Below, in pieces: positions 424-14,793 of a stretch of DNA of 35,274 nt. Where the stretch lies: the NCBI GenBank assembly GCA_902793915.1, contig CADBFJ010000005.1, forward strand, positions 1 through 35,274. Direction: 5' to 3'. Position 1 is the first letter of the stretch, and every line of letters begins with the position of its first letter. Under the pieces are notes generated by a model. It had not been told where the DNA came from. It made no database searches and saw only the letters and a program-made list of their open reading frames with translations. This DNA comes from an uncultured Ruminococcus sp. GTDB lineage: Bacteria; Bacillota; Clostridia; Oscillospirales; CAG-272. Both the position numbers and the translations under genes were made by a program.

Positions 424-864
424 ATGAAACGAATTTACGTCAATGAAAAGTGGTGCCTCGGGTGCCACCTTTGCGAATATAACTGCGCCTTTGCCAATTC
501 GGGTATGAAGGATATGGTGCTGGCGCTCAAAGACAAAAAGATCTTCCCGCGCATCCACATCGAAGGCGACGAGAGGATCACCTTTGCCGTCTCCTGTCGC
601 CACTGCACCGACCCGCTCTGTGTCAAAAGCTGTATTGCCGGAGCGATCTCAAAGGTTGACGGCGTGGTGAAAATTGATAAGACCAAATGCGTCGGGTGCC
701 TTACCTGCGTGCTGGTCTGCCCACACGGCGCGCTTTCACTCGGCGAGGACGGGGTGATGCAGAAATGCGAACTCTGCCTCGAAAACGCCTGCGGAAAACC
801 CGCCTGCGTGACCGGTTGTCCGAATCGCGCCATCGTCTACGAAGAGCGAGGTGACAAGGCATGA
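424..864 (+). CDS. 4Fe-4S dicluster ferredoxin-domain protein
   Basis: Cys clusters CLGCHLCEYNC and CVGCLTCVLVCP plus further Cys motifs. It starts 2 nt after the upstream stop, and its stop overlaps the next start (ATGA at 861-864). Confidence 0.8.
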   Translation: MKRIYVNEKWCLGCHLCEYNCAFANSGMKDMVLALKDKKIFPRIHIEGDERITFAVSCRHCTDPLCVKSCIAGAISKVDGVVKIDKTKCVGCLTCVLVCPHGALSLGEDGVMQKCELCLENACGKPACVTGCPNRAIVYEERGDKA

Positions 865-2093
865 AAAAATACGTCATCATCGGAAATGGGACTGCCGCCG
901 TCGGGTGTGTCGAAGGCATCCGCTCGGTCGACAAGAAAAGCAAAATCACCATCATTTCCGAAGAGAAGCACGCGGTTTACAGCCGTCCACTCATCTCCTA
1001 CTACCTCGAAGGCAAAACCGACCTCCACCGGATGAAATATCGCGGCGACTCCTTCTGCGAGGACAACGACTGCCGCGTACTTTACGGAACGAGAGCCGTT
1101 TCAATCGACCCCGAAAAGAAACTGGTTGCCTTGAACGACGGAGCAAAGCTTGATTACGACGCGCTCTGCGTCGCGACCGGATCTCGCCCGTTCGTACCGC
1201 CCTTTGAAGGATTGGAAACGGTCGAAAAGAAATTTTCCTTTATGAAACTCGACGACGCGCTCGCCCTTGAAGGGACGCTGACGAAAGTCGCGCGCGTCCT
1301 TATCGTAGGAGCCGGACTCATCGGCCTCAAATGCGCCGAAGGAATCCGCGACCGCGTGGGAGAGATCACCGTCTGCGATCTTGCTGACCGGGTGCTCTCG
1401 AGTATTCTTGACGCCGACTGCGCCAAGATCGTGCAAGAGCGCCTCGAAGCAAACGGGCTGCATTTTTTGCTCGGCGACACGGCGGTTCGTTTTGAGAAAA
1501 GCAAAGCCGTTATGAAAAGCGGCAAGACGGTTGAGTTTGACGTCCTCGTGCTTGCCGTCGGCGTCCGGGCGAATACCGAACTCGTCAAAGAAGCGGGCGG
1601 CAACGTAAACCGCGGAATCGTGGTTGATGAAAAACTGCAAACCACTTTACCCTGCGTTTTCGCCGCGGGCGACTGCGCCGAGGGCTTTGACGCGTCAATC
1701 GGCGCAAACCGCGTGCTCGCCATTCTGCCGAACGCCTATCTGCAGGGACATGCGGCGGGCGTCAATATGGCGGGCGGCAAGGCCTGCTTTGACAACGCCA
1801 TCCCGATGAACTCGATCGGCTTTTTCGGCTATCATATCATGACCGCCGGCGCTTACGACGGAGAAATGATCGAAGAGAAAACCGGATCGGGCGTCAAGAG
1901 ATTCTTCATCGGCGAGAACCGGCTCAAGGGCTATATTCTGCTCGGGGAGGTCGAGCGCGCCGGAATCTACACCTCGCTGATCCGCGAGAGGACGCCGCTT
2001 GACACGATCGACTTTGATCTGATGAAAAAAGTTGCCACCAATATGATTTATTCCGAAAAAGAACGTAGAAAAACTTTTGGAGACGTGGTATAA
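861..2093 (+). CDS. NAD(P)/FAD-dependent (pyridine nucleotide-disulfide family) oxidoreductase
   Basis: Two Rossmann motifs (VIIGNGTAAVG and LIVGAGLIGLKCAE) and a late AAGDCA motif. It is translationally coupled to its neighbours. Confidence 0.8.
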   Translation: MKKYVIIGNGTAAVGCVEGIRSVDKKSKITIISEEKHAVYSRPLISYYLEGKTDLHRMKYRGDSFCEDNDCRVLYGTRAVSIDPEKKLVALNDGAKLDYDALCVATGSRPFVPPFEGLETVEKKFSFMKLDDALALEGTLTKVARVLIVGAGLIGLKCAEGIRDRVGEITVCDLADRVLSSILDADCAKIVQERLEANGLHFLLGDTAVRFEKSKAVMKSGKTVEFDVLVLAVGVRANTELVKEAGGNVNRGIVVDEKLQTTLPCVFAAGDCAEGFDASIGANRVLAILPNAYLQGHAAGVNMAGGKACFDNAIPMNSIGFFGYHIMTAGAYDGEMIEEKTGSGVKRFFIGENRLKGYILLGEVERAGIYTSLIRERTPLDTIDFDLMKKVATNMIYSEKERRKTFGDVV

Positions 2094-2822: not shown

Positions 2823-4028
2823 ATGAAATATTCCAAAGAAGAGGTACTGCAATACGTTGCCGAGGAGGACGTCAAGTTCGTCCGCTTGGTCTTTTGCGAC
2901 GTGTTCGGCAGGCAGAAGAATATTTCGATCATGCCGGACGAGCTGAACCGTGCCTTTACGCACGGCATCGCCTTTGACGCCTCGGCCATCGCCGGCTTTG
3001 GCGACGAGGCGCACTCGGATCTCTTTTTGCATCCCGATCCCGAAACGCTCGCTTGGCTCCCCTGGAGGCCCGAGCATGGCAAGGTCGTGCGGATGTTCTG
3101 CTCGATCACATATCCCGACGGAACGCCCTTTGAGTGCGATACGAGAAGTCTTTTGAAGTCTGCTGTCGAGGACGCAAAAAAGGCAGGATACAGCTTCTAC
3201 TTTGGCGCCGAGCAGGAGTTTTACCTCTTTGAGCTCGACGAAAAGGGACTTCCGACCAAAATTCCCTACGACAATGCCGGATACATGGATATTGCCCCCG
3301 AGGATCGCGGCGAAAACGTGCGCCGTGAGATTTGTCTCACGCTCGAGCAAATGGGCATCTATCCCGAAAGCTCGCATCACGAAGAAGGCCCCGGGCAAAA
3401 CGAGATCGACTTCCGCTATTCGGATGCTCTCTCGGCCGCCGACGACTTTATGACCTTCCAGACGGTGGTCAAGACGATCGCCCGCCGCAACGGGCTCTGT
3501 GCCGACTTTTCGCCCAAACCGCTGGAGAAGGCTCCCGGCAACGGATTCCATATCAACTGCTCGGCAAAACCGAATTCGCAGGTCGTGGAAGATCAAATGG
3601 TAGCGGGGATTCTCGAAAAGATCGCCCAGATGACGCTCTTCCTGAATTCCACCGAGCAATCCTACAAGCGGCTCGGGCAGATGAAGGCGCCCAAGTATAT
3701 TTCCTGGTCGAAAGAAAACCGCTCGCAGCTCGTGCGGATCCCGGCGGCTGCGGATGAATATAAGCGTGTCGAGCTGCGCTCGGCCGATCCGCTGTCAAAT
3801 CCCTACCTTGCCTTTGCACTCATGATCCGTGCCTGCCTCTTGGGGATCGAGAACAAGCTGCCGCTCCCTGCTCCGGTCAATCTCAATCTCTTCTCAACCG
3901 AAAAGTTGAAGGCACCCGGACTCGAAAAGCTGCCCGATTCTTTGCAGGCGGCAAAAGAGATTGCGAAAAAAGACGACTGGCTCAAAAACAATCTTCCGGC
4001 AAGAATTTTGGAGATCTATTGCAAATAA
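2823..4028 (+). CDS. glnA: glutamine synthetase (short type I-like)
   Basis: GS motifs FGAEQEFYLF, HHEEGPGQNEIDF, KPL..APGNGFHIN, QSYKRL and VELRSADPLSNPYLAFA. An SD AAAGGAGG lies upstream. Confidence 0.85.
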   Translation: MKYSKEEVLQYVAEEDVKFVRLVFCDVFGRQKNISIMPDELNRAFTHGIAFDASAIAGFGDEAHSDLFLHPDPETLAWLPWRPEHGKVVRMFCSITYPDGTPFECDTRSLLKSAVEDAKKAGYSFYFGAEQEFYLFELDEKGLPTKIPYDNAGYMDIAPEDRGENVRREICLTLEQMGIYPESSHHEEGPGQNEIDFRYSDALSAADDFMTFQTVVKTIARRNGLCADFSPKPLEKAPGNGFHINCSAKPNSQVVEDQMVAGILEKIAQMTLFLNSTEQSYKRLGQMKAPKYISWSKENRSQLVRIPAAADEYKRVELRSADPLSNPYLAFALMIRACLLGIENKLPLPAPVNLNLFSTEKLKAPGLEKLPDSLQAAKEIAKKDDWLKNNLPARILEIYCK

Positions 4029-4063
4029 CAAAAAAAGGATTTCGGTGAAAGGAGGGACAACCC

Positions 4064-4648
4064 ATGGCAGAGAGAGAACAAACCTATCGTGTCCTCATCG
4101 TCTCGGCATCCGAGGCATTTGCAAAAGAACTCTCCGGCCTTCTTCCCCTCCCCACCTTCTCGCCGATCCAAACGGTGCCTGCAATCAGCCTTGCAAAACG
4201 GGAACTCTCCGAGCGGGATTTTGATTTTGTCATCATCAACTCTCCGCTCCGCGACGATCCGGGTACGCACTTTGCAATTGACGCCGCCGATGCCTCCGGC
4301 ACGGTTGTCCTCTTCCTTGCACGTACCGAACAGTACGACGAGGCCTATGACACGCTCGCCGGTCACGGGGTGTTCCTGCTGCAAAAGCCGATCTCCCGCT
4401 CGCTCTTCTCGGTTGCGGCCGATTGGCTGGTCAGCGCCCGGGAGGGACTGCGCAAAACCCAGAAAAAGACCATGTCCATCGAGGAAAAGATGAACGAAAT
4501 TCGCCTTGTCAACCGTGCCAAATGGCTGCTCATCAGCGAGCTCAAAATGACCGAGTCCGACGCCCACCGCTACATCGAAAAACAAGCCATGGATCGCTGC
4601 GTCCCCAAAAAGCAGGTTGCGGAAGAGATTATCAAGTTGTATAGTTAA
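4064..4648 (+). CDS. ANTAR-domain RNA-binding regulator with a receiver-like N-terminus
   Basis: The C-terminal segment EEKMNEIRLVNRAKWLLISELKMTESDAHRYIEKQAMDRCVPKKQVAEEI is ANTAR-like. The N-terminal receiver-like fold reads FDFVIIN where the phospho-acceptor Asp is expected. SD GAAAGGAGGG. Confidence 0.75.
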   Translation: MAEREQTYRVLIVSASEAFAKELSGLLPLPTFSPIQTVPAISLAKRELSERDFDFVIINSPLRDDPGTHFAIDAADASGTVVLFLARTEQYDEAYDTLAGHGVFLLQKPISRSLFSVAADWLVSAREGLRKTQKKTMSIEEKMNEIRLVNRAKWLLISELKMTESDAHRYIEKQAMDRCVPKKQVAEEIIKLYS

Positions 4649-4667
4649 AAAAGCACCCCGATCGGGG

Positions 4668-4711
4668 CAAAACAAAAGAAACGGCTATTCTATCAAAATA
4701 GTCGTTTCTTT
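4668..4711. repeat. R1-A: conserved terminator-like hairpin (GAAACGGCTATT / AATAGTCGTTTC) with an A-run before it and a T-run after it; copy 1 of 3
   Basis: The same ~44-nt sequence caaaacaaaagaaacggctattctatcaaaatagtcgtttcttt also occurs at 8793-8839 and 11521-11566. It lies directly after the ANTAR gene stop. Confidence 0.85.
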
Positions 4712-4766
4712 TTGTGTTGCGTGGGAGATATTGATAGAATCCACGCGAGGGGGGTAAGAGGTTACC
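4712..4766. repeat. R2-A: 55-nt conserved element, copy 1 of 2
   Basis: ttgtgttgcgtgggagatattgatagaatccacgcgaggggggtaagaggttacc aligns with 9048-9103 with about 6 differences. It contains the small hairpins CGTGG..CCACG and GGGGTAAG..CTTACCCC. Confidence 0.8.
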
Positions 4767-5138: not shown

Positions 5139-5677
5139 GCACATTTCCGATGTTAGAAGCGGCATTGGGCGGCGGATTTTGCCACGGTTCTCTCTTGTTG
5201 GTGGCGAGCAGGCCGGGCGTTGGGAAAAGTACATTATTGCGGCAGATCGCAGACGATTCCAACGGCATTTATCTCTGCAACGAACTCGACGCCGCCGGTG
5301 TGGAAAATGTGGCAAGGAGTGCGCACGGCAGGATTCTTTGTTTGGATTTTGACACCGCCGCACAAAGCATCACGGGAGAAACTCTAAAGCGGCTTGCGCA
5401 AAAATACGAAATCCCCATTCTGGTAGCGACAGGTGTATCCCGGAATTGCGAAGGGCGAGAAGATAAGCGCCCACGCCTTGCGGATCTGGATCAAAATCTG
5501 GTCGCCGCAGCCGACGTGGTTCTCGTGCTCTATCGGGAATCCTATTATCATTGCGGCATTTCCATAGAGCCGAACGACGACGAATTCATCCTTCGCAAAA
5601 ACGCACATGGGGAGATCTGCACCATTCCTGCCACCCTGCATCTCCCGGAACGTCTTTGGTCGGAACGGAAAAATTAG
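5135..5677 (+). CDS. truncated DnaB C-terminal-like (RecA-fold) P-loop protein, 180 aa
   Basis: GGGFCHGSLLLVASRPGVGKSTLL (Walker A in DnaB context) and LKRLAQKYEIPILVATGVSRNCEGREDKRPRLADLDQNLVAAADVVLVLYRESYY (DnaB H3/H4-like). It lacks the DnaB N-terminal domain and part of the core. Confidence 0.65.
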   Translation: MSTFPMLEAALGGGFCHGSLLLVASRPGVGKSTLLRQIADDSNGIYLCNELDAAGVENVARSAHGRILCLDFDTAAQSITGETLKRLAQKYEIPILVATGVSRNCEGREDKRPRLADLDQNLVAAADVVLVLYRESYYHCGISIEPNDDEFILRKNAHGEICTIPATLHLPERLWSERKN

Positions 5678-5679
5678 CC

Positions 5680-5708
5680 TTGCATTCCTGTCCCGAATAT
5701 GGTACAAT
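5680..5708 (+). promoter_or_regulatory. sigma-A-type promoter TTGCAT-17-TACAAT (with TGg extension) overlapped by dyad O2, GTCCCGAATATGGTAC (5690-5705)
   Basis: -35 at 5680-5685 and -10 at 5703-5708. O2 matches O1 at 13/16 positions, and its last 3 nt are the first 3 nt of the -10. Confidence 0.65.
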
Positions 5709-5739
5709 AGGATCAACCGGAATGAGAAAGGATGATCCT

Positions 5740-6729
5740 ATGGATACTCTGGAACCGAAAAAGTTAGCGCTCTTGCGGGTTTTGCAAATTCTCTGGAAGG
5801 AGAGCGACGCCGACCATCCGCTCCACCAAGGACAGATCGCATCGCTTTTGGAGCGAGAATACGGTATCGTGGTCGAGCGCAAGGCGATCGGGCGCAACCT
5901 CTCGCTCTTGCAGGAGGCAGGGTTTGAGATTGAAAACAACGGAGGCGGGTTTTATCTGAATTCCCGCCTTTTTGAGGATTCCGAGCTTCAACTTTTGATC
6001 GACGGCGTGCTGGCAAGTCGGCACATCTCGCTCCCGCACTCAAAGGAATTGATCGGCAAGCTCTGCCGGCTCTCCAATCGCTATTTTCCTCGCCACGTCT
6101 CGAACATTCATTCGGTCGGCGAGTGGAACAAGACCGAAAACAAAACGCTTTTCTATCACATTGAGCTTGTGGACGAGGCGATCGAAAGCGGGAAAATGGT
6201 GGAGTACGACTACAACAAATACGGTGTTGACAAGAAACTCCACAAAAGCTCCTTTCAGCGCATCAGCCCCTACCAGTTGATCTTACACAACCAGCGCTAT
6301 TATCTCATGGGGTACAGCTCCTATTGGAAACACATGGTCTATCACCGCATGGATCGCATCACAAACATGGTCATCTCGGAGCAGCCGCTTGTCCCGATCC
6401 GTACGATCGAGGGCTATTCCGACGGGATCAATTACCGCAACCTTTCCACCGCCATGCCCTATATGTTCGCCGAGCCGCCCGAGCGCATCACGCTCCGCAC
6501 CGGCGAGGGCATGATGGATCAACTTGTGGACTGGTTCGGCAAGGAGGTCATGGTGCAAAAGATCGAGGACGGCACCATCGAGGTCAGCCTCCACGCCGCA
6601 CCGACTGCCATGCTCTATTGGGCGCTCCAATACGCCGACGCCGTGGAAATTCTCAAGCCGCAGGGGTTAAGGGAGCGGATTTGCAAGGTGCTGGACGAGG
6701 CAAAGGGAAAATATCAACAAGGAAAGTGA
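5740..6729 (+). CDS. HTH-WYL-WCX family transcriptional regulator (BrxR/CapW/PafBC-like architecture)
   Basis: N-terminal wHTH (LALLRVLQILWKESDADHPLHQGQIASLL), WYL core (YQLILHNQRYYLMGYSSYWKHMVYHRMDRI) and a C-terminal extension. ATG 5740 has SD GAAAGGA. The ORF-track start at 5551 and ATG 5722 lie upstream of or too close to the predicted promoter. Confidence 0.75.
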   Translation: MDTLEPKKLALLRVLQILWKESDADHPLHQGQIASLLEREYGIVVERKAIGRNLSLLQEAGFEIENNGGGFYLNSRLFEDSELQLLIDGVLASRHISLPHSKELIGKLCRLSNRYFPRHVSNIHSVGEWNKTENKTLFYHIELVDEAIESGKMVEYDYNKYGVDKKLHKSSFQRISPYQLILHNQRYYLMGYSSYWKHMVYHRMDRITNMVISEQPLVPIRTIEGYSDGINYRNLSTAMPYMFAEPPERITLRTGEGMMDQLVDWFGKEVMVQKIEDGTIEVSLHAAPTAMLYWALQYADAVEILKPQGLRERICKVLDEAKGKYQQGK

Positions 6730-8447: not shown

Positions 8448-8476
8448 ATTGTACCAAATAGGGGACGAATTCCTAA
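8448..8476 (-). promoter_or_regulatory. promoter TTAGGA-17-TACAAT (TGg extension) overlapped by dyad O3 (minus-strand GTCCCCTATTTGGTAC, 8451-8466)
   Basis: -10 at 8448-8453 and -35 at 8471-8476 (plus-strand coordinates). O3 has the same geometry relative to the -10 as O2. Confidence 0.6.
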
Positions 8477-8638
8477 TTTAATAGATATAAATACTCGTGT
8501 GCCTTGCCCAATCCACCCCTTTGAATTTGCCAATTTCGCACACGGGCACCCGCGCCGCTGTCCGTGAGCGAAAGCCCCGGAGATCATGCCGCCCCCTGGG
8601 GTAACTCATGGTTTACTCCTCTACCCCGCCGCTTCGAC

Positions 8639-8674
8639 CCATAATCCAACGATTACCCATAATCCAACGATTAC
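8639..8674. repeat. tandem 18-nt direct repeat ccataatccaacgattac x2
   Basis: Two exact adjacent copies; a single copy occurs at 11384-11401. It marks the left edge of the ~400-nt duplicated module. Confidence 0.85.
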
Positions 8675-8703
8675 TGTTTGAAATAAGCCAAAAAAGCAAA
8701 AAA

Positions 8704-8742
8704 GCAACCGTTACAGACCTGTTTTTGATCTGTATCGGTTGC
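8704..8742. terminator. bidirectional terminator-like hairpin (GCAACCGTTACAGA / TCTGTATCGGTTGC) flanked by A- and T-runs
   Basis: 14-bp stem with one mismatch. The homologous hairpin at 11430-11470 has a different outer stem sequence (GGCAGCC/GGCTGCC) but keeps the pairing. Confidence 0.6.
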
Positions 8743-8792
8743 CTTTTATTTGTTCAAAAACTCGAAAAAGCCCTTATTTCAAGCACTTTTTG

Positions 8793-8839
8793 GGCAAAAC
8801 AAAAGAAACGGCTATTCTATCAAAATAGTCGTTTCTTTA
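8793..8839. repeat. R1-B: second copy of the R1 hairpin
   Basis: Near-identical to 4668-4711 and 11521-11566. Confidence 0.85.
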
Positions 8840-9017
8840 TGGCACGGCATGAGGGATTCAGAACCAAACTGCGGCGAAAGGGGGGCTTTTCGTGCTCGTT
8901 CCTCTCTTCCTTGTTTTCGCCTCCGTGCACCGTTTTCTCGTCGGCTGAACGCCTCCGTTTTGCTTGCGGCAAAAACCGAAAACGGCAGGGGGTTGTTCAT
9001 TGCCCCCATCTCGCGCC
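8840..9017. repeat. X1: ~178-nt unit beginning with a degenerate copy of the tRNA-Arg 3' end (T-loop to CCA), then a 33-nt variable segment and a 78-nt block identical to X2
   Basis: 8840-8866 tggcacggcatgagggattcagaacc resembles the tRNA-Arg 3' end at 11776-11802. 8840-8880 matches 11567-11607 at 39/41. 8914-8991 is identical to 11641-11718. 8881-8913 is unrelated to 11608-11640 but has the same length. Confidence 0.8.
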
Positions 9018-9022
9018 AAAAA

Positions 9023-9044
9023 GGCGGATGCTGTTGCATCCGCC
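9023..9044 (-). terminator. intrinsic terminator on the minus strand (GGCGGATGC-aaca-GCATCCGCC followed by TTTTT)
   Basis: 9-bp GC-rich stem with a T5 tract on the minus strand (9018-9022). Confidence 0.65.
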
Positions 9045-9047
9045 TCG

Positions 9048-9103
9048 TTGTGTTGCGTAGTAGATATTGATAGAATCCACGAGAGGGGGGATAAGTGGTT
9101 ACC
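9048..9103. repeat. R2-B: second copy of the 55-nt R2 element
   Basis: ttgtgttgcgtagtagatattgatagaatccacgagaggggggataagtggttacc aligns with 4712-4766. Confidence 0.8.
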
Positions 9104-9196
9104 CTCTAACACGGAAACTACTGTATATCTGCCAGTTGAATCTCTCGCCCAGTTGAGAATACCTATCAAAAACGAATAGTCATCTCTATTTCCTCT

Positions 9197-9270: not shown

Positions 9271-10218
9271 TTATAGATATGGATTTATTGGAAATGTTTT
9301 TTCTTCCTTCGCCCATTTTTCACTTTGAATCAACGGGTTAACCAATAATGAAATATCATTGAAATCCATACTGTTTTTAAAGCCTTTACTCCCATCTAAA
9401 AATCTACAATTCATCAATCTATCAAATGTTGCCTCACAACTTCGCCGCGGGTATCTCCCAAGTGTGGTGTCAAAAAAATCATTATGATAGGAATAATGAT
9501 GCGTATAAATAAACTCTTGCCATGACTCAAAGACCTCTTCTTCTGGACGTAAATCTACTATCTCGATTTCTTCCATTGTTCTATCCGTAACATTCCCCCA
9601 TGCATTTTTTAACATGGATACAGCTTCGACATCGCTTTTAGGTGCACTGTATCCAAAGATGGTTATCATATACGCTACTTCAAGTGCATTTTGTAATGCT
9701 TCCCATGATTTAGAAATGGCAGGATTTTTTTGATAATTCTTATTTTTTATTGGATATAGTAGCCCTATACCCTGTAGTGGTTCACCACATTTGCATTTAC
9801 CGCCGATATTACCAATGACATTATCTTTTTCACAATATCCTATTGCAACATTGCCATGAAGAAATGCAAGTGAGGTTAAACTCAAAATAAGAAAATCATA
9901 TACCGTCGGATTGTCGGGTATAGTATATTCCGATATATACTCATATATCTTCGTCTCAAGTTCCAATTTTGCTTTTTCATAAATACTACCGGGAGTACTT
10001 TTTTCTGAAATCTCCATATAGATATCTTCTAAATTATCCGAAGTAGTATCCAATGACAAAGACGAAATGATATTTTTTAGACCAAGTTTTTCTATAAACC
10101 CCTTCATTGCAGAAATCTTTTTCCCATTTTTATCACCGTTGGGTATTGCTGCACAACTCGCACCAGCACCAAGAATTACAACATGGGGGCGCCATTTCAT
10201 TTGTTCTTCATATGTCAT
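9271..10218 (-). CDS. compact SIR2/sirtuin-like NAD-binding protein (315 aa)
   Basis: VVILGAGASCAAIP (GAGxS...IP), AFLHGNV (catalytic-His-like HG) followed by a Cys cluster (C-x12-CKCGEPL), and ITIFGYSAPKSD (second Rossmann strand). AT-rich, and last gene of a 3-gene operon. Confidence 0.6.
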   Translation of the reverse strand: MTYEEQMKWRPHVVILGAGASCAAIPNGDKNGKKISAMKGFIEKLGLKNIISSLSLDTTSDNLEDIYMEISEKSTPGSIYEKAKLELETKIYEYISEYTIPDNPTVYDFLILSLTSLAFLHGNVAIGYCEKDNVIGNIGGKCKCGEPLQGIGLLYPIKNKNYQKNPAISKSWEALQNALEVAYMITIFGYSAPKSDVEAVSMLKNAWGNVTDRTMEEIEIVDLRPEEEVFESWQEFIYTHHYSYHNDFFDTTLGRYPRRSCEATFDRLMNCRFLDGSKGFKNSMDFNDISLLVNPLIQSEKWAKEEKTFPINPYL

Positions 10219-10223
10219 TCCTA

Positions 10224-10415
10224 TTATTTACCGCCAATCTCACAGCATATATCTTCAAAATCTCCATCTGGAATTTCTCGACCGATTTCATTTGACAAAA
10301 TGGTTGCCAGCATATTGGTCTTCACTCTTTTATTCGGGTACAAATCATTTTGAAGTAAGCGAAAGAAATTCTCGTCGCTTAAGCATTTTTGAAATAAAGT
10401 ATTTAAATCAATCAT
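10224..10415 (-). CDS. small protein (63 aa) paralogous to the N-terminal domain of the 283-aa protein
   Basis: MIDLNTLFQKCLSDENFFRLLQNDLYPNKRVKTNMLATILSNEIGREI aligns with MIDLKTLFQKHPDCISNENRFRALMNELYPNERAKTNVLATILSTGIGREI. ATG 10415 has SD GGTGAG; the ORF-track start at 10439 overlaps the upstream stop. Confidence 0.55.
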   Translation of the reverse strand: MIDLNTLFQKCLSDENFFRLLQNDLYPNKRVKTNMLATILSNEIGREIPDGDFEDICCEIGGK

Positions 10416-10435
10416 ACGCCCAATCTCACCACATA

Positions 10436-11287
10436 TCAATCCAAGCTAATCCACATCGCTGGGCGGACTGCCTTGGAATAGTCAACATTGTAGCCATAGT
10501 ACTCGACAGAGCCATCACGGTTGACATAAGCAGCGTTGCTAGATTGCATACCGGGTGACCGTAGCCACCAACGTGCCTCATTAACAAACCAACCCTCACA
10601 TTTCCTCGCTTCATCAGAACTAAAATATTTGTTTGCCTCTAGTATGCTCAATAGAAATACTTTATCGTTTGTTTTTTTACCAGGAGAAATCCTATAAGAC
10701 GGATTCTTATCAGCAGTAACGGTTGTACTTTGGATCTTTCTCTGTTCCTCTGCGCTGAATGCACAATTAAGAAAATCGTTGTTCAGCCACTTGCGCAATG
10801 AACAAGCTTCCCATGTTGTGGAAACAGAATACCCCGGCGGATCATGATACGGCTTGATAGTCAGCAAAATTTTGCTAATGATAAATGCTTTCCTATCCTT
10901 TTCGTCCAATATGAGCCATTCGATTGGAGCAGGTTCACCATACGCAGACTGTGGATAGCGCCCGAAGGTGATAATACCTCCATGTGCTACTGTTAAGTTG
11001 TTAGAATCTGCAAAACCGTCAGCAGTCGGCCACAGTTGCAAGCATTTCTCACACAAATCGCTTGCAAAGCCATATTCATTTTCCAGCCACTTCGCAAAGT
11101 TGCTTAAAGATAAATAGTCGCTTTTCCCGTTTTGAATCTCTCGACCGATTCCAGTCGACAAAATGGTCGCCAGCACATTTGTCTTCGCTCTTTCATTCGG
11201 GTACAATTCGTTCATCAGCGCGCGAAAGCGATTCTCGTTGCTTATGCAGTCAGGATGCTTTTGAAATAAGGTTTTTAAATCAATCAT
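10436..11287 (-). CDS. two-domain protein: unknown ~85-aa N-terminal domain plus a DUF6273-like C-terminal domain
   Basis: The C-terminal motifs RKWLNNDFLNCAFSAEEQ, DKVFLLSILEA, WWLRSPG and VRPAMWI match my memory of the DUF6273 family. There is no signal peptide. Confidence 0.55.
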   Translation of the reverse strand: MIDLKTLFQKHPDCISNENRFRALMNELYPNERAKTNVLATILSTGIGREIQNGKSDYLSLSNFAKWLENEYGFASDLCEKCLQLWPTADGFADSNNLTVAHGGIITFGRYPQSAYGEPAPIEWLILDEKDRKAFIISKILLTIKPYHDPPGYSVSTTWEACSLRKWLNNDFLNCAFSAEEQRKIQSTTVTADKNPSYRISPGKKTNDKVFLLSILEANKYFSSDEARKCEGWFVNEARWWLRSPGMQSSNAAYVNRDGSVEYYGYNVDYSKAVRPAMWISLD

Positions 11288-11325
11288 ATTGCTTTGCCCT
11301 CACAAAATCCGTTTCAATTTAGAAT

Positions 11326-11354
11326 ATTATATCACAAAGCCTTCTTAATTTCTA
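11326..11354 (-). promoter_or_regulatory. promoter for the 283-aa/63-aa/SIR2 operon: extended -10 TGaTATAAT with a weak -35 TAGAAA
   Basis: ATTATATCA at 11326-11334 on the plus strand. The -35 (11349-11354) lies inside one arm of the inverted repeat at 11350-11378. Confidence 0.55.
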
Positions 11355-11378: not shown

Positions 11379-11383
11379 ACGCC

Positions 11384-11401
11384 CCATAATCCAACGATTA
11401 C
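11384..11401. repeat. single copy of the 18-nt repeat ccataatccaacgattac; left edge of duplicated module copy 2
   Basis: Identical to the units at 8639-8674. The homology continues rightward through 11742. Confidence 0.8.
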
Positions 11402-11429
11402 TCTTTGAAACGAGCCGAAAAACAAAAAA

Positions 11430-11470
11430 GGCAGCCTTTACAGACCTGTTTTTGATCTGCATCGGCTGCC
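11430..11470. terminator. bidirectional terminator-like hairpin (GGCAGCCTTTACAGA / TCTGCATCGGCTGCC)
   Basis: Homolog of 8704-8742 with stem-preserving substitutions. Confidence 0.55.
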
Positions 11471-11520
11471 TTATATTGATTCAAAAACTCGAAAAAGCCC
11501 TTATTTCAAGCACTTCCGGG

Positions 11521-11566
11521 GTAAAACAAAAGAAACGGCTATTCTATCAAAATAGTCGTTTCTTTT
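11521..11566. repeat. R1-C: third copy of the R1 hairpin
   Basis: Near-identical to R1-A and R1-B. Confidence 0.85.
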
Positions 11567-11742
11567 TGGCGCGGCATGAGGGATTCAGAACCCAACTGCG
11601 GCGAAAGTGATTGTATCCTACGCGCGCCGTCACTTTTCTCTTTTCGCCTCCGTGCACCGTTTTCTCGTCGGCTGAACGCCTCCGTTTTGCTTGCGGCAAA
11701 AACCGAAAACGGCAGGGGCTTCTCGTCCTCTCGTACGGCACC
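11567..11742. repeat. X2: second copy of the tRNA-Arg-3'-end-derived unit
   Basis: 11567-11593 tggcgcggcatgagggattcagaaccc matches the tRNA 3' end at 26 of 27 positions (one extra base). It carries the identical 78-nt block and a divergent 33-nt segment. Confidence 0.8.
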
Positions 11743-11748
11743 AAAAAA

Positions 11749-11770
11749 CGGGATGGTAAAAACCATCCCG
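11749..11770. terminator. terminator of tRNA-Arg (CGGGATGG-loop-CCATCCCG, with an A6 run on one side and a T6 run on the other)
   Basis: 8-bp stem immediately 3' of the tRNA on the minus strand, followed there by TTTTTT. Confidence 0.7.
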
Positions 11771-11775
11771 TTTTT

Positions 11776-11852
11776 TGGCGCGGCATGAGGGATTCGAACC
11801 CCCGACCTACTGGTTCGTAGCCAGGCACTCTATCCGGCTGAGCTAATGCCGC
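11776..11852 (-). tRNA. tRNA-Arg (anticodon ACG), CCA encoded
   Basis: The minus strand reads GCGGCAT TA GCTC AGCCGGATA GAGT G CCTGG CTACGAA CCAGT AGGTC GGGGG TTCGAAT CCCTC ATGCCGC G CCA. It is 77 nt and close to E. coli tRNA-Arg(ACG). Confidence 0.92.
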
Positions 11853-11873: not shown

Positions 11874-11902
11874 ATTATACCCCATTCTGCTCTCTTTGTC
11901 AA
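11874..11902 (-). promoter_or_regulatory. consensus promoter TTGACA-17-TATAAT for tRNA-Arg
   Basis: -10 at 11874-11879 and -35 at 11897-11902 (plus-strand coordinates). Confidence 0.75.
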
Positions 11903-14142: not shown

Positions 14143-14793
14143 ATGAAATACAGCGCCATTCTCTTCGATCTTGACGGCACGATTCACGACTCGCGCGAGA
14201 GCATTTTTTCGTCGCTTCGCCACGCCTACAGGACGCTCGGTCTTGAAGTCCCCGGCGATGACTTCCTCAACCGCTATCTCGGTCCGCCGCTCCTCGACGG
14301 CTTTATGGAGAACGCGCAGCTTGACGAAAAGCACGCTGCCGAGGCCTGCCGCATCTTCCGCGCCTACTATCGCGCGGGCGCGATGTACGAGTGCAGCACT
14401 TACGACGGGATGATTGACCTACTCAAGCACTTGAAACAGGCAAAAATCCCCGCGGCGATCGCTTCCTGTAAGCTTGATCCCTTTGTCAAAGCGATTGCAG
14501 AAAAAAAGGGATATAACCCCTATTTTGCGGTAACCGTCGGTGCGAGCGAGGACGGGCGCGTCTCCACCAAGGCAGAGGTCATCGGGCAGGCGCTCGCAGA
14601 ACTTGGACTGGCGCCCGAAAACGTCCTTATGGTAGGAGACAGAAGAGACGACATCCTCGGCGCAAAAGAGGTAGGACTTGCCTCCGCAGGCGCCCTCTGG
14701 GGATTTTCGCTCCCCGGGGAACTGAAAGAAGCCGGCGCCGACTTTTTGTTCGAGACGCCAAAGGCGTTGGAGGCGTTTTTGTTTATGAAATAA
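14143..14793 (+). CDS. HAD-IA family hydrolase (phosphoglycolate phosphatase-like)
   Basis: ILFDLDGTIHDS (the DxDGT motif) and VGDRRDDILGA. ATG 14143 follows SD GTGAGGG. Confidence 0.8.
   Translation: MKYSAILFDLDGTIHDSRESIFSSLRHAYRTLGLEVPGDDFLNRYLGPPLLDGFMENAQLDEKHAAEACRIFRAYYRAGAMYECSTYDGMIDLLKHLKQAKIPAAIASCKLDPFVKAIAEKKGYNPYFAVTVGASEDGRVSTKAEVIGQALAELGLAPENVLMVGDRRDDILGAKEVGLASAGALWGFSLPGELKEAGADFLFETPKALEAFLFMK

Follow-up and report, generated by a model that had tools for sequence, protein, structure and literature searches.

A putative miniature integrative unit with a foldable core beside the tRNA-Arg(ACG) gene of an uncultured Ruminococcus sp.

Introduction

The ssrA gene of Dehalococcoides is a site of tandem islands, some of which lack an integrase, and their borders are repeats of 20 bp beginning in the T-loop (PMC3146451). 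Integrase-less elements of the CIME type are stacked by accretion (reviewed in PMC5704250). Here we describe a locus of an uncultured Ruminococcus sp. that may work in the manner of such tandem accretion at a tRNA gene. In the stretch of 35,274 nt that was analyzed (contig CADBFJ010000005.1, hereafter the window) a short sequence, X, is present twice on the minus strand, as X1 (8840-9017) and X2 (11567-11742), and each copy carries a repeat of the 3′-end of a tRNA-Arg(ACG) gene, from the T-loop to CCA.

The arrangement resembles tRNA and transfer-messenger RNA (tmRNA) islands such as those at ssrA (PMC3146451) in that element-derived sequence is kept just upstream of the repeat, several units follow a single intact gene in tandem, integrases are absent from some of them and the content differs between strains. 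CIME-type units need no recombinase, and the X array is likewise without one. It is unlike the tRNA and tmRNA islands in that the whole array has neither an integration module nor an integrase. Furthermore, the smallest X unit is ~209 nt long, is conserved as such across species and shows signs of selection for structure in its interior, and the tRNA-proximal side of the second unit is formed by a promoter-like motif, R, and not by a tRNA-end repeat.

ERIC, BOX and Correia-type sequences are small structured intergenic repeats. Like these, X is an imperfect palindrome in the size range of 130-200 nt with a modular interior; it lies between terminators at gene ends, and part of its interior recurs elsewhere as repeats. 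It differs from them in not being dispersed, since every copy is tied to the tRNA-Arg locus, and in having ends that copy a tRNA. On the evidence presented below we assign a probability of about one half to the reading that X belongs to a miniature integrative unit without an integrase, with a structured and probably transcribed core, which has been stacked twice by island accretion.

Organization of the X copies in the window

The tRNA-Arg(ACG) gene is located on the minus strand at 11776-11852 (ARAGORN; Rfam score of 63.2 bits), and X1 and X2 each repeat its 3′-end (11776-11802). A preliminary description of this DNA had reported T-loop-to-CCA copies at 8840-8866 and 11567-11593; these were recovered within a family of three 31-nt repeats (family D4: 8836-8866, 11563-11593 and 11772-11802). 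The copy in X2 is identical to the tRNA end save for one extra base in the T-loop. Other features given in that description were reproduced as well. X1 and X2 agree at 39 of their first 41 nt and then carry 33-nt segments (8881-8913 and 11608-11640) that are equal in length and mutually unrelated in sequence (17/35 positions match, and 354 of 1000 shuffles score as well). In X2 this segment lies between the two strands of the stem 11600-11606/11642-11648. A 78-nt block with 100% identity (8914-8991 and 11641-11718), for which 0 matches are expected by chance, and the 5′ strands of the two copies (8992-9017 and 11719-11742) complete the sequence.

Hairpin terminators flank both X1 and X2, and a promoter scan found no promoter for X, as had been stated before. 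The terminator between tRNA-Arg and X2, t2 (11743-11775), consists of an A-tract, a hairpin and a T-tract as read directly from the sequence. Together with the tRNA end and the 5′ strand of X2 it forms a palindrome with 28-nt arms (inverted repeat I3); read across terminator t, the 5′ strand of X repeats the genuine tRNA end in inverted orientation. Upstream of X1 in the tRNA direction there is another hairpin terminator, t3 (9018-9047), and the place that corresponds to that of tRNA-Arg beside X2 is taken by R_B (9049-9103, plus strand), a second copy of the promoter-like motif TGTGTTG-N8-ATATTGATAGAAT. On the other side of X stands the hairpin terminator T1 (copy 2 at 8802-8838, inverted repeat I16; copy 3 at 11528-11566, inverted repeat I12). 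The order on the minus strand is promoter - tRNA-Arg / t2 - X2 / T1 - D - cargo B - R_B, followed by t3 - X1 / T1 - D - Y - cargo A - R_A / T1 - ANTAR.

It had been noted that the identity of the copies might be due to a recent duplication that also covers the flanks. The flanks are duplicated on the left side only, where a further 205 nt are similar (8635-8839 versus 11380-11566, 91% identity). The full duplication, 8635-9017 versus 11380-11742, thus reaches beyond X as previously defined and takes in a stretch, D, which ends in T1. Copy 1 of D (8635-8801) has two ATCGTTGGATTAT-type repeats at 8635-8674; copy 2 (11380-11527), which is 91% identical to 8656-8801, has one (11380-11401) and a second hairpin terminator at 11428-11472. 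At the 91% identity of D, the expected probability of 78 identical bases is ~7e-4. The 78-nt block has therefore been constrained or homogenised, and the variable segment and the 5′ segment have a different history, through either patchy gene conversion or allele replacement.

A third copy of T1, which had been missed, was found at 4663-4714 with 98% identity over 50-52 nt. It is the terminator of the ANTAR gene and directly abuts R_A, X being absent from this junction (4663-4766, plus strand), which forms the far limit of the island. At 8802-9103, X1 and t3 (208 nt) intervene between T1 and R. Compared with the T1/R_A junction at 4663-4766, X plus t is a clean insert between T1 and R_B. This, and the imperfect inverted ends of X (12/16 in X1, 12/17 in X2), would suit a miniature inverted-repeat transposable element, that is, a non-autonomous transposon with inverted ends mimicking the tRNA-Arg end, moved beside terminator hairpins by a transposase. 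An element of this kind had been among the proposals of the preliminary description; it draws weak support from the inverted ends, and we consider it very unlikely: no transposon-type target-site duplication and no transposase were found, the copies sit at the tRNA-Arg locus only, scans of sequence collections with the block gave 0 matches, and the X sequence of the related contig L012 has no pair of inverted ends, one of them being missing.

Filled and empty sites in related strains and species

For comparison between species we followed VanY, the gene adjoining tRNA-Arg (related contigs are referred to by our own numbers). Filled alleles with the order tRNA / t / X / T1 were found in the window, in L012/L021 and in L016. 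In L016, a metagenome-assembled genome of Clostridia (GCA_017450945.1; VanY 63%), tRNA-Arg is followed by a terminator, X, T1 and an ordinary glycerate-kinase gene, with no island. In L012/L021 (VanY 80%) it is followed by a terminator, a 240-nt array of short hairpins, an X core and T1. These contigs bring the number of distinct X sequences to four: X1 and X2 of the window, X3 of L012/L021 and X4 of L016. Sites without X are of two kinds. T1 follows tRNA-Arg directly in L032 (VanY 86%), where a D-like stretch, four ATCGTTGGATTAT repeats and a unit Y come next, and also in L002, a sister strain identical to the window up to the tRNA, in which the T1 hairpin is followed by a different gene; both are empty sites. 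In L010 (VanY 89%) a different terminator follows tRNA-Arg and there is no X. L033 (VanY 71%) has a t3-like hairpin directly after tRNA-Arg, and then the contig ends. Synteny yields no further copies of X because tRNA-Arg is not beside VanY in more distant relatives (VanY <=59%).

These alignments indicate that X plus t is a discrete unit of ~209 nt which lies between tRNA-Arg(ACG) and the native terminator T1 and is patchily distributed among lineages of the clade. It is bounded by the tRNA end on one side and by a 20-27-nt T-loop-to-CCA direct repeat of that end on the other. The repeat is also present in L016 and, in imperfect form, in L012, where it has drifted (CCCTCTTTGGCGCCA) from that genome's own tRNA. 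The region of D copy 1 is probably the ancestral flank, because a homologous T1-D-repeat stretch directly follows tRNA-Arg in L032.

Among the strains closest to the window, L001 and L008 are the same apart from an 87-nt indel at 9871. In L004/L007, from one sample, the array is complete; X2-t2, however, adjoins a third copy of R and pyrG in place of the tRNA, and identity to the window stops exactly at 11776, the last base of the tRNA. Breakage has thus recurred at the place where a partner on the left (tRNA end, X end or R) meets one on the right (hairpin t or T1). L004/L007 and L002 both derive from sample ERZ27280413; in the former the array adjoins pyrG/asnB in place of tRNA-Arg/VanY, and in the latter tRNA-Arg adjoins a T1 hairpin with a DnaB_C-like gene. 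Such junctions would fit a reciprocal exchange where the tRNA end meets the hairpin, but equally a chimeric assembly at repeats.

The short-hairpin array of L012 (11046-11290; also in L021 and L013) is ~240 nt long and comprises 7-8 short hairpins, every stem being different, with GATTMCATNC-like spacers. It lies between the tRNA-Arg terminator and the X3 core, and the 404-nt region folds with z = -4.9.

The tRNA-like end as an attachment site

X had been suggested to be an att-site relic of serial integrations. For its tRNA-like end this view is supported. The T-loop-to-CCA repeat is contiguous with the native terminator, the site is empty in some alleles (L002, L032) and has a stack of cassettes behind it in the window, and a viral contig, L038 (IMGVR_UViG_3300028797_000328; region 2908-4260), has an exact 31-nt copy of the tRNA-Arg end without the tRNA. 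Adjoining this copy is a gene for a 396-aa tyrosine integrase with Arm-DNA-binding and phage-integrase domains. The site is likely to be the phage attachment site (attP) of an element targeting tRNA-Arg, and integrases aimed at exactly this sequence therefore exist. The gene next after the 31-nt tRNA end in L038 is a fused methylase/Mrr-type restriction gene.

At the X loci themselves, 8/8 island open reading frames (ORFs) of the window are without an integrase or transposase domain, and the precomputed Pfam lists of genes adjacent to X in L012 and L016 contain no integrase. The only integrase found together with this att core is the one on L038, a contig unrelated to the array.

Conservation and folding of the core

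The stretch methylase-VanY-tRNA-X of the window is 74% identical to that of L016 and 82% identical to that of L012. X4 is 81-83% identical to X1/X2 overall, and a hand count on alignment A2 gave core identities of ~86% for L016 and ~92% for L012. Across species, alignment fails or nearly fails for the terminators t and for the 5′ and variable segments. Judged from these alignments, X is conserved as well as or better than its neighbours, and the core is conserved above the neighbouring coding DNA.

RNAalifold predicted two arms. The first is a long hairpin enclosing two smaller ones, which makes a three-way junction; the second of the inner hairpins has tandem G.A pairs. In the other arm the GGCGAAA/UUUCGCC stem proposed in the preliminary description is present and is topped by the variable segment. 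Two pairs of columns show compensatory changes, 34/87 (two CG, two GC) and 35/86 (three GC, one AU), and the remaining changes are in loops or junctions. Of the cells, 98.6% are paired, versus 42-50% when the partners are slid. In all four X sequences the strand of the tRNA direction folds better than its complement, by 3.4-13.8 kcal/mol. Overall, these data suggest that the core is under a constraint that respects base pairing, and the foldable core may be an undescribed small RNA.

The far end of X was also confirmed to pair with the tRNA-like end. In X1, X2 and X4 the 5′ end and the tRNA-like 3′ end form a closing helix of 12-15 bp that ends in GCCA. Its energies on the strand of the tRNA direction are -24.2, -19.8 and -24.1 kcal/mol, respectively, versus -15.8, -16.7 and -12.5 kcal/mol on the opposite strand, as expected for an RNA of the tRNA direction that tolerates G.U pairs. 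The shuffled means were -14.5 for X1 and -12.6 for X2, and pairing as good was reached by 1/500 (X1), 6/500 (X2) and 11/500 (X4) shuffles.

Two further interpretations of the sequence were rejected. The hairpin with tandem G.A pairs, read directly, is missing the defining nucleotides of a hammerhead or a kink-turn. The 75-aa minus-strand ORFs across X (8812-9039 and 11539-11766) start inside a terminator hairpin, have no ribosome-binding site and are not in public gene calls.

The structured RNA that had been put forward for X thus gains from conservation across species, two compensatory pairs, loop-confined substitutions and strand-biased folding, and loses from the lack of a promoter. The same data bear on the possibility that X, inherited vertically, is a gene for a small RNA located in the 3′ trailer of tRNA-Arg. 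Its tRNA-like end would then be a mimicry that serves processing, CCA handling or protein binding, and islands would use it merely incidentally, as homology. The same position and order in three species, core conservation above the coding baseline, changes that are compensatory or confined to loops, strand-biased folding and the GCCA-ending closing helix of X1, X2 and X4 all agree with such a gene. We nevertheless regard it as unlikely, since X has no promoter and a strong terminator upstream, belongs to no Rfam family and is patchy in close relatives, being missing from L002, L032 and L010. X3, moreover, has neither the closing helix nor the end sequence of its own tRNA. The repeat also begins in the T-loop with a one-base scar, like the products of integrases (PMC3146451).

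The variable segment

Counted between GGCGAAAA and TTTCGCC, the variable segment is 34, 34, 34 and 36 nt long in the four X sequences (V1, V2, V3 and V4 of X1, X2, X3 and X4, respectively) and consists of 68-78% purine in the tRNA direction. In comparisons with shuffled sequences the similarity of V2 and V3 was reached in 0/1000 cases, that of V2 and V4 in 8/1000 and that of V1 and V4 in 32/1000. The 5′ segments of X1 and X4 match at 22/27 positions (0/1000 shuffles). Each version in the window thus resembles that of another species and the length is not strictly fixed, so that the hypervariability at constant length on which the preliminary description had laid weight was not upheld. The segment is best taken as a weakly constrained, purine-rich top of a hairpin and not as a programmable specificity loop.

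A guide function, in which X would be a bridge-RNA or CRISPR RNA-like molecule with a variable loop that specifies a nucleic-acid target, is in our opinion highly improbable. It would account for a conserved stem bearing a loop of near-constant length (34, 34, 34, 36) and varying sequence. No IS110-type recombinase, Cas protein or other effector is encoded nearby, and the variable segments had no match in the phage and plasmid collections, which was the check proposed earlier for a specificity role. In addition, the significant likeness of V2 to V3 and V4 and the weak likeness of V1 to V4 argue for slow drift rather than reprogramming.

The different closest relatives of the variable parts (the 5′ segment of X1 with X4, V2 with V3) point to recombination, and so to the idea that X is a functionless scar formed by the fused arms of an old prophage or island, its conservation resulting from recent exchange between lineages and local gene conversion. 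A complete lambda-type attP is close to ~209 nt in size. The direct repeats and empty alleles would be expected for such a scar, and the 78-nt identity lies within a duplication that is 91% identical. However, the core is still ~86-92% identical across species, as against 74-82% for coding DNA, whereas in t, the 5′ segment and V similarity is no longer recognisable. Substitutions also avoid stems or compensate, and the core module recurs in unrelated contexts with its helices kept. A functionless scar therefore seems to us quite unlikely.

Relatives of the core elsewhere

All copies of X that were found sit at the tRNA-Arg locus. Three pieces of the 78-nt block had 0 matches in viral contigs, as did the X-type tRNA end with the extra T-loop base. 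A 20-mer of the block and the R motif had 0 matches in 185,579 species genomes, a collection that does not include the organism of the window, and two pieces of the block, one of them a 22-mer, had 0 matches in JGI metagenomes, where a shorter motif gave one partial match. BLAST of X1 and X2 gave no match against phages and, against plasmids, only a match to a twin-hairpin module. Nothing in Rfam, families such as tRNA, tmRNA, Y RNA-like and 6S included, matched X at E<=10 (window) or E<=1 (L012/L016), and ARAGORN found no tRNA or tmRNA in X.

The twin-hairpin module was located by BLAST and a looser pattern in Subdoligranulum variabile OY725847.1 (L035), where it forms GC-rich 126-nt tandem repeats at 14209-14789; dispersed twin-hairpin units also stand beside a DnaB helicase gene (L035 5540-7070). 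The module is found in two IMG/VR contigs, L036 and L037, too. In both the Subdoligranulum and the IMG/VR sequences its outer helices are not those of X. X3 and the Subdoligranulum and IMG/VR units have a 25-nt exact run in common, and stems covary between units: GGC/GCC versus GCC/GGC, and UUUUUGC/GCAAAA versus UUUCGC/GCGAAA. From these occurrences, the twin-hairpin module is a recurrent structured building block associated with mobile DNA.

The pattern conserved in all four X sequences retrieved one partial relative, on JGI contig L022 (JAEIGA010082460.1). At 780-1000 (minus strand) this gene-poor contig has one twin-hairpin module in a wholly different outer helix, followed by GC-rich hairpins. 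L035 also contains separate tandem repeats of 71-72 nt at 5547-5758 and 9416-9915, which have no Rfam match; its repeat regions could be an origin region or an RNA array. Rfam at permissive thresholds gave nothing over L022 or the Subdoligranulum repeats.

A bolder proposal, tentative and in our view improbable, is that X, and perhaps Y, represents an undescribed class of mobile small RNA that resides in a tRNA attachment site, is driven by the tRNA promoter and matured by tRNA-processing enzymes by way of its closing helix of the acceptor/T-arm type, and possesses a protein-binding three-way junction in common with tandem RNA arrays of phage-like Oscillospiraceae elements, with a purine-rich loop that tunes the choice of partner.

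Transcription and comparison with known RNAs

The promoter of tRNA-Arg, a perfect TTGACA-17-TATAAT (11874-11902, minus strand) that is kept in L012 and L016, is the only promoter which the scan placed upstream of X2 in the tRNA direction. A small RNA cut from the 3′ external transcribed spacer of a tRNA, 3′ETS-leuZ, is present in Escherichia coli. X is like 3′ETS-leuZ in lying in the trailer of a strongly transcribed tRNA without a promoter of its own, and its release would likewise be by tRNA-processing nucleases. It is unlike 3′ETS-leuZ in that an apparently efficient terminator precedes it and in being far longer and more structured.

tmRNA and the bacterial Y RNA YrlA are small RNAs that mimic tRNA (PMC4201824). 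Like them, X is ~180 nt long, its ends pair into a helix of the acceptor/T-arm type ending in CCA, and a large insert replaces the rest of the tRNA. Unlike them, X is not recognised by ARAGORN or Rfam, has an 8-nt T-loop and a degenerate stem, and has the CC of CCA paired; it lacks a tag reading frame and an rsr/rtcB neighbour, and X3 is without the closing helix. A tmRNA-like tag frame was also rejected on the ground that X3 and X4 have no in-frame stop.

The surrounding island

GC content drops from 52-58% to 38-45% between ~7000 and 11900. Cargo B (9271-11354, minus strand), located between both repeat modules, has a promoter at 11326-11354 and ORFs at 10436-11287 (DUF6273), 10224-10439 (71 aa) and 9271-10218 (315 aa). 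Cargo A encodes products of 146 aa, PD-(D/E)XK, WYL, DnaB_C-like and 84 aa. ORF 9271-10218 (minus strand) is missing 87 nt (29 codons, in frame) at 9871 with respect to L001, L004 and L008, giving 315 aa versus 344 aa. The DUF6273 protein (10436-11287) and the 71-aa ORF (10224-10439) have a common N-terminal segment with 80% DNA identity (10264-10385 versus 11127-11248), and a 15-nt remnant of a third N-terminal copy is present at 9136-9150, downstream of the last ORF of cargo B. This suggests serial duplication or decay in cargo B.

The T1-R pair also follows ANTAR in L006 and in L016, a distant species, so that R is chromosomal and not specific to the island. By eye, R can be read as an extended -10 promoter, TTGTGT-17-TAGAAT, while the consensus scan made no such call. 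The idea that R is a decayed tRNA end was discarded: only 5/15 right-justified positions match, and R is a conserved promoter beside ANTAR in island-free species. Extra copies of R (R_B, 9049-9103; R_A, 4714-4766; L004 17593-17650) face the 3′-end of cargo B, or pyrG in L004, in antisense orientation. The ATATTGATAGAAT core of R and the conserved top of the T1 hairpin are inverted complements of each other, and T1 with R makes a site of ~54 bp with dyad symmetry, the centre of which is the junction where X is inserted.

Unit Y is GC-rich, ~170 nt long and adjoins the repeat module (window 8470-8637, minus strand; L032 1716-1876). In L032, where four ATCGTTGGATTAT direct repeats precede it, Y has a tRNA-His-like 3′-end (GGGTTCGAATCCCGTATCTCACCCCA) able to pair with its own 5′-end. 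The copy in the window has lost the T-arm/CCA end and has a fold z-score of +0.7. Y had no match in Rfam or ARAGORN.

Discussion

According to the reading that we favour, X would be the body of a gene-less unit of ~209 nt composed of terminator t, a structured core of ~150 nt and the tRNA-end repeat. This unit takes up the attachment site formed by the T-loop-to-CCA end of tRNA-Arg(ACG), with the tRNA on one side and T1 on the other. The presence of two copies of X in the window is explained by the stacking of a 2.7-kb segment (T1-D-cargo B-R-t3-X1) behind the first unit. As to the order of stacking, crossover at the tRNA-or-R/hairpin boundary and crossover within the tRNA-like core fit about equally. 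A tyrosine integrase acting in trans would have created the tRNA-end repeat and could still use it. The core RNA would be made by read-through of terminator t from the very strong consensus promoter of tRNA-Arg, and tRNA-processing enzymes would presumably trim it, given that its two ends pair over 12-15 bp into an imitation of the acceptor/T-stem that finishes with GCCA.

A number of observations weigh against this scheme. No sigma-70-type promoter was found before X in the window, L012 or L016, the only one being that of the tRNA, and a canonical terminator lies between tRNA-Arg and X. In L038 the att core is not accompanied by an X-like arm or by any similarity to X, and the searches found no full-length or integrase-bearing element with an X-like arm. 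On the t3 side of X1 there is R_B instead of a second tRNA-end repeat. The evidence for structure is modest: only four sequences are available, the covariation score was reached by 23/500 column shuffles, the folding z-scores of single sequences are weak (-0.8 to -1.4), and X3 in L012 is without the 5′ strand of the closing helix. Finally, the empty alleles would equally be given by precise deletion between the repeats.

The arrangement explains why assemblies break at tRNA-Arg in this lineage and allows X to be used to mark a variable island, which may include genes of the defence type. If our interpretation is correct, a unit of ~209 nt in a tRNA attachment site leaves the tRNA whole and provides cassettes with a second place to dock, and the promoter driving its conserved folded core would be among the strongest of the cell. 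X would then represent a minimal form of integrative element and a candidate new RNA motif, and it would link chromosomal tRNA trailers to repeat arrays in the phage-like DNA of gut Clostridia.

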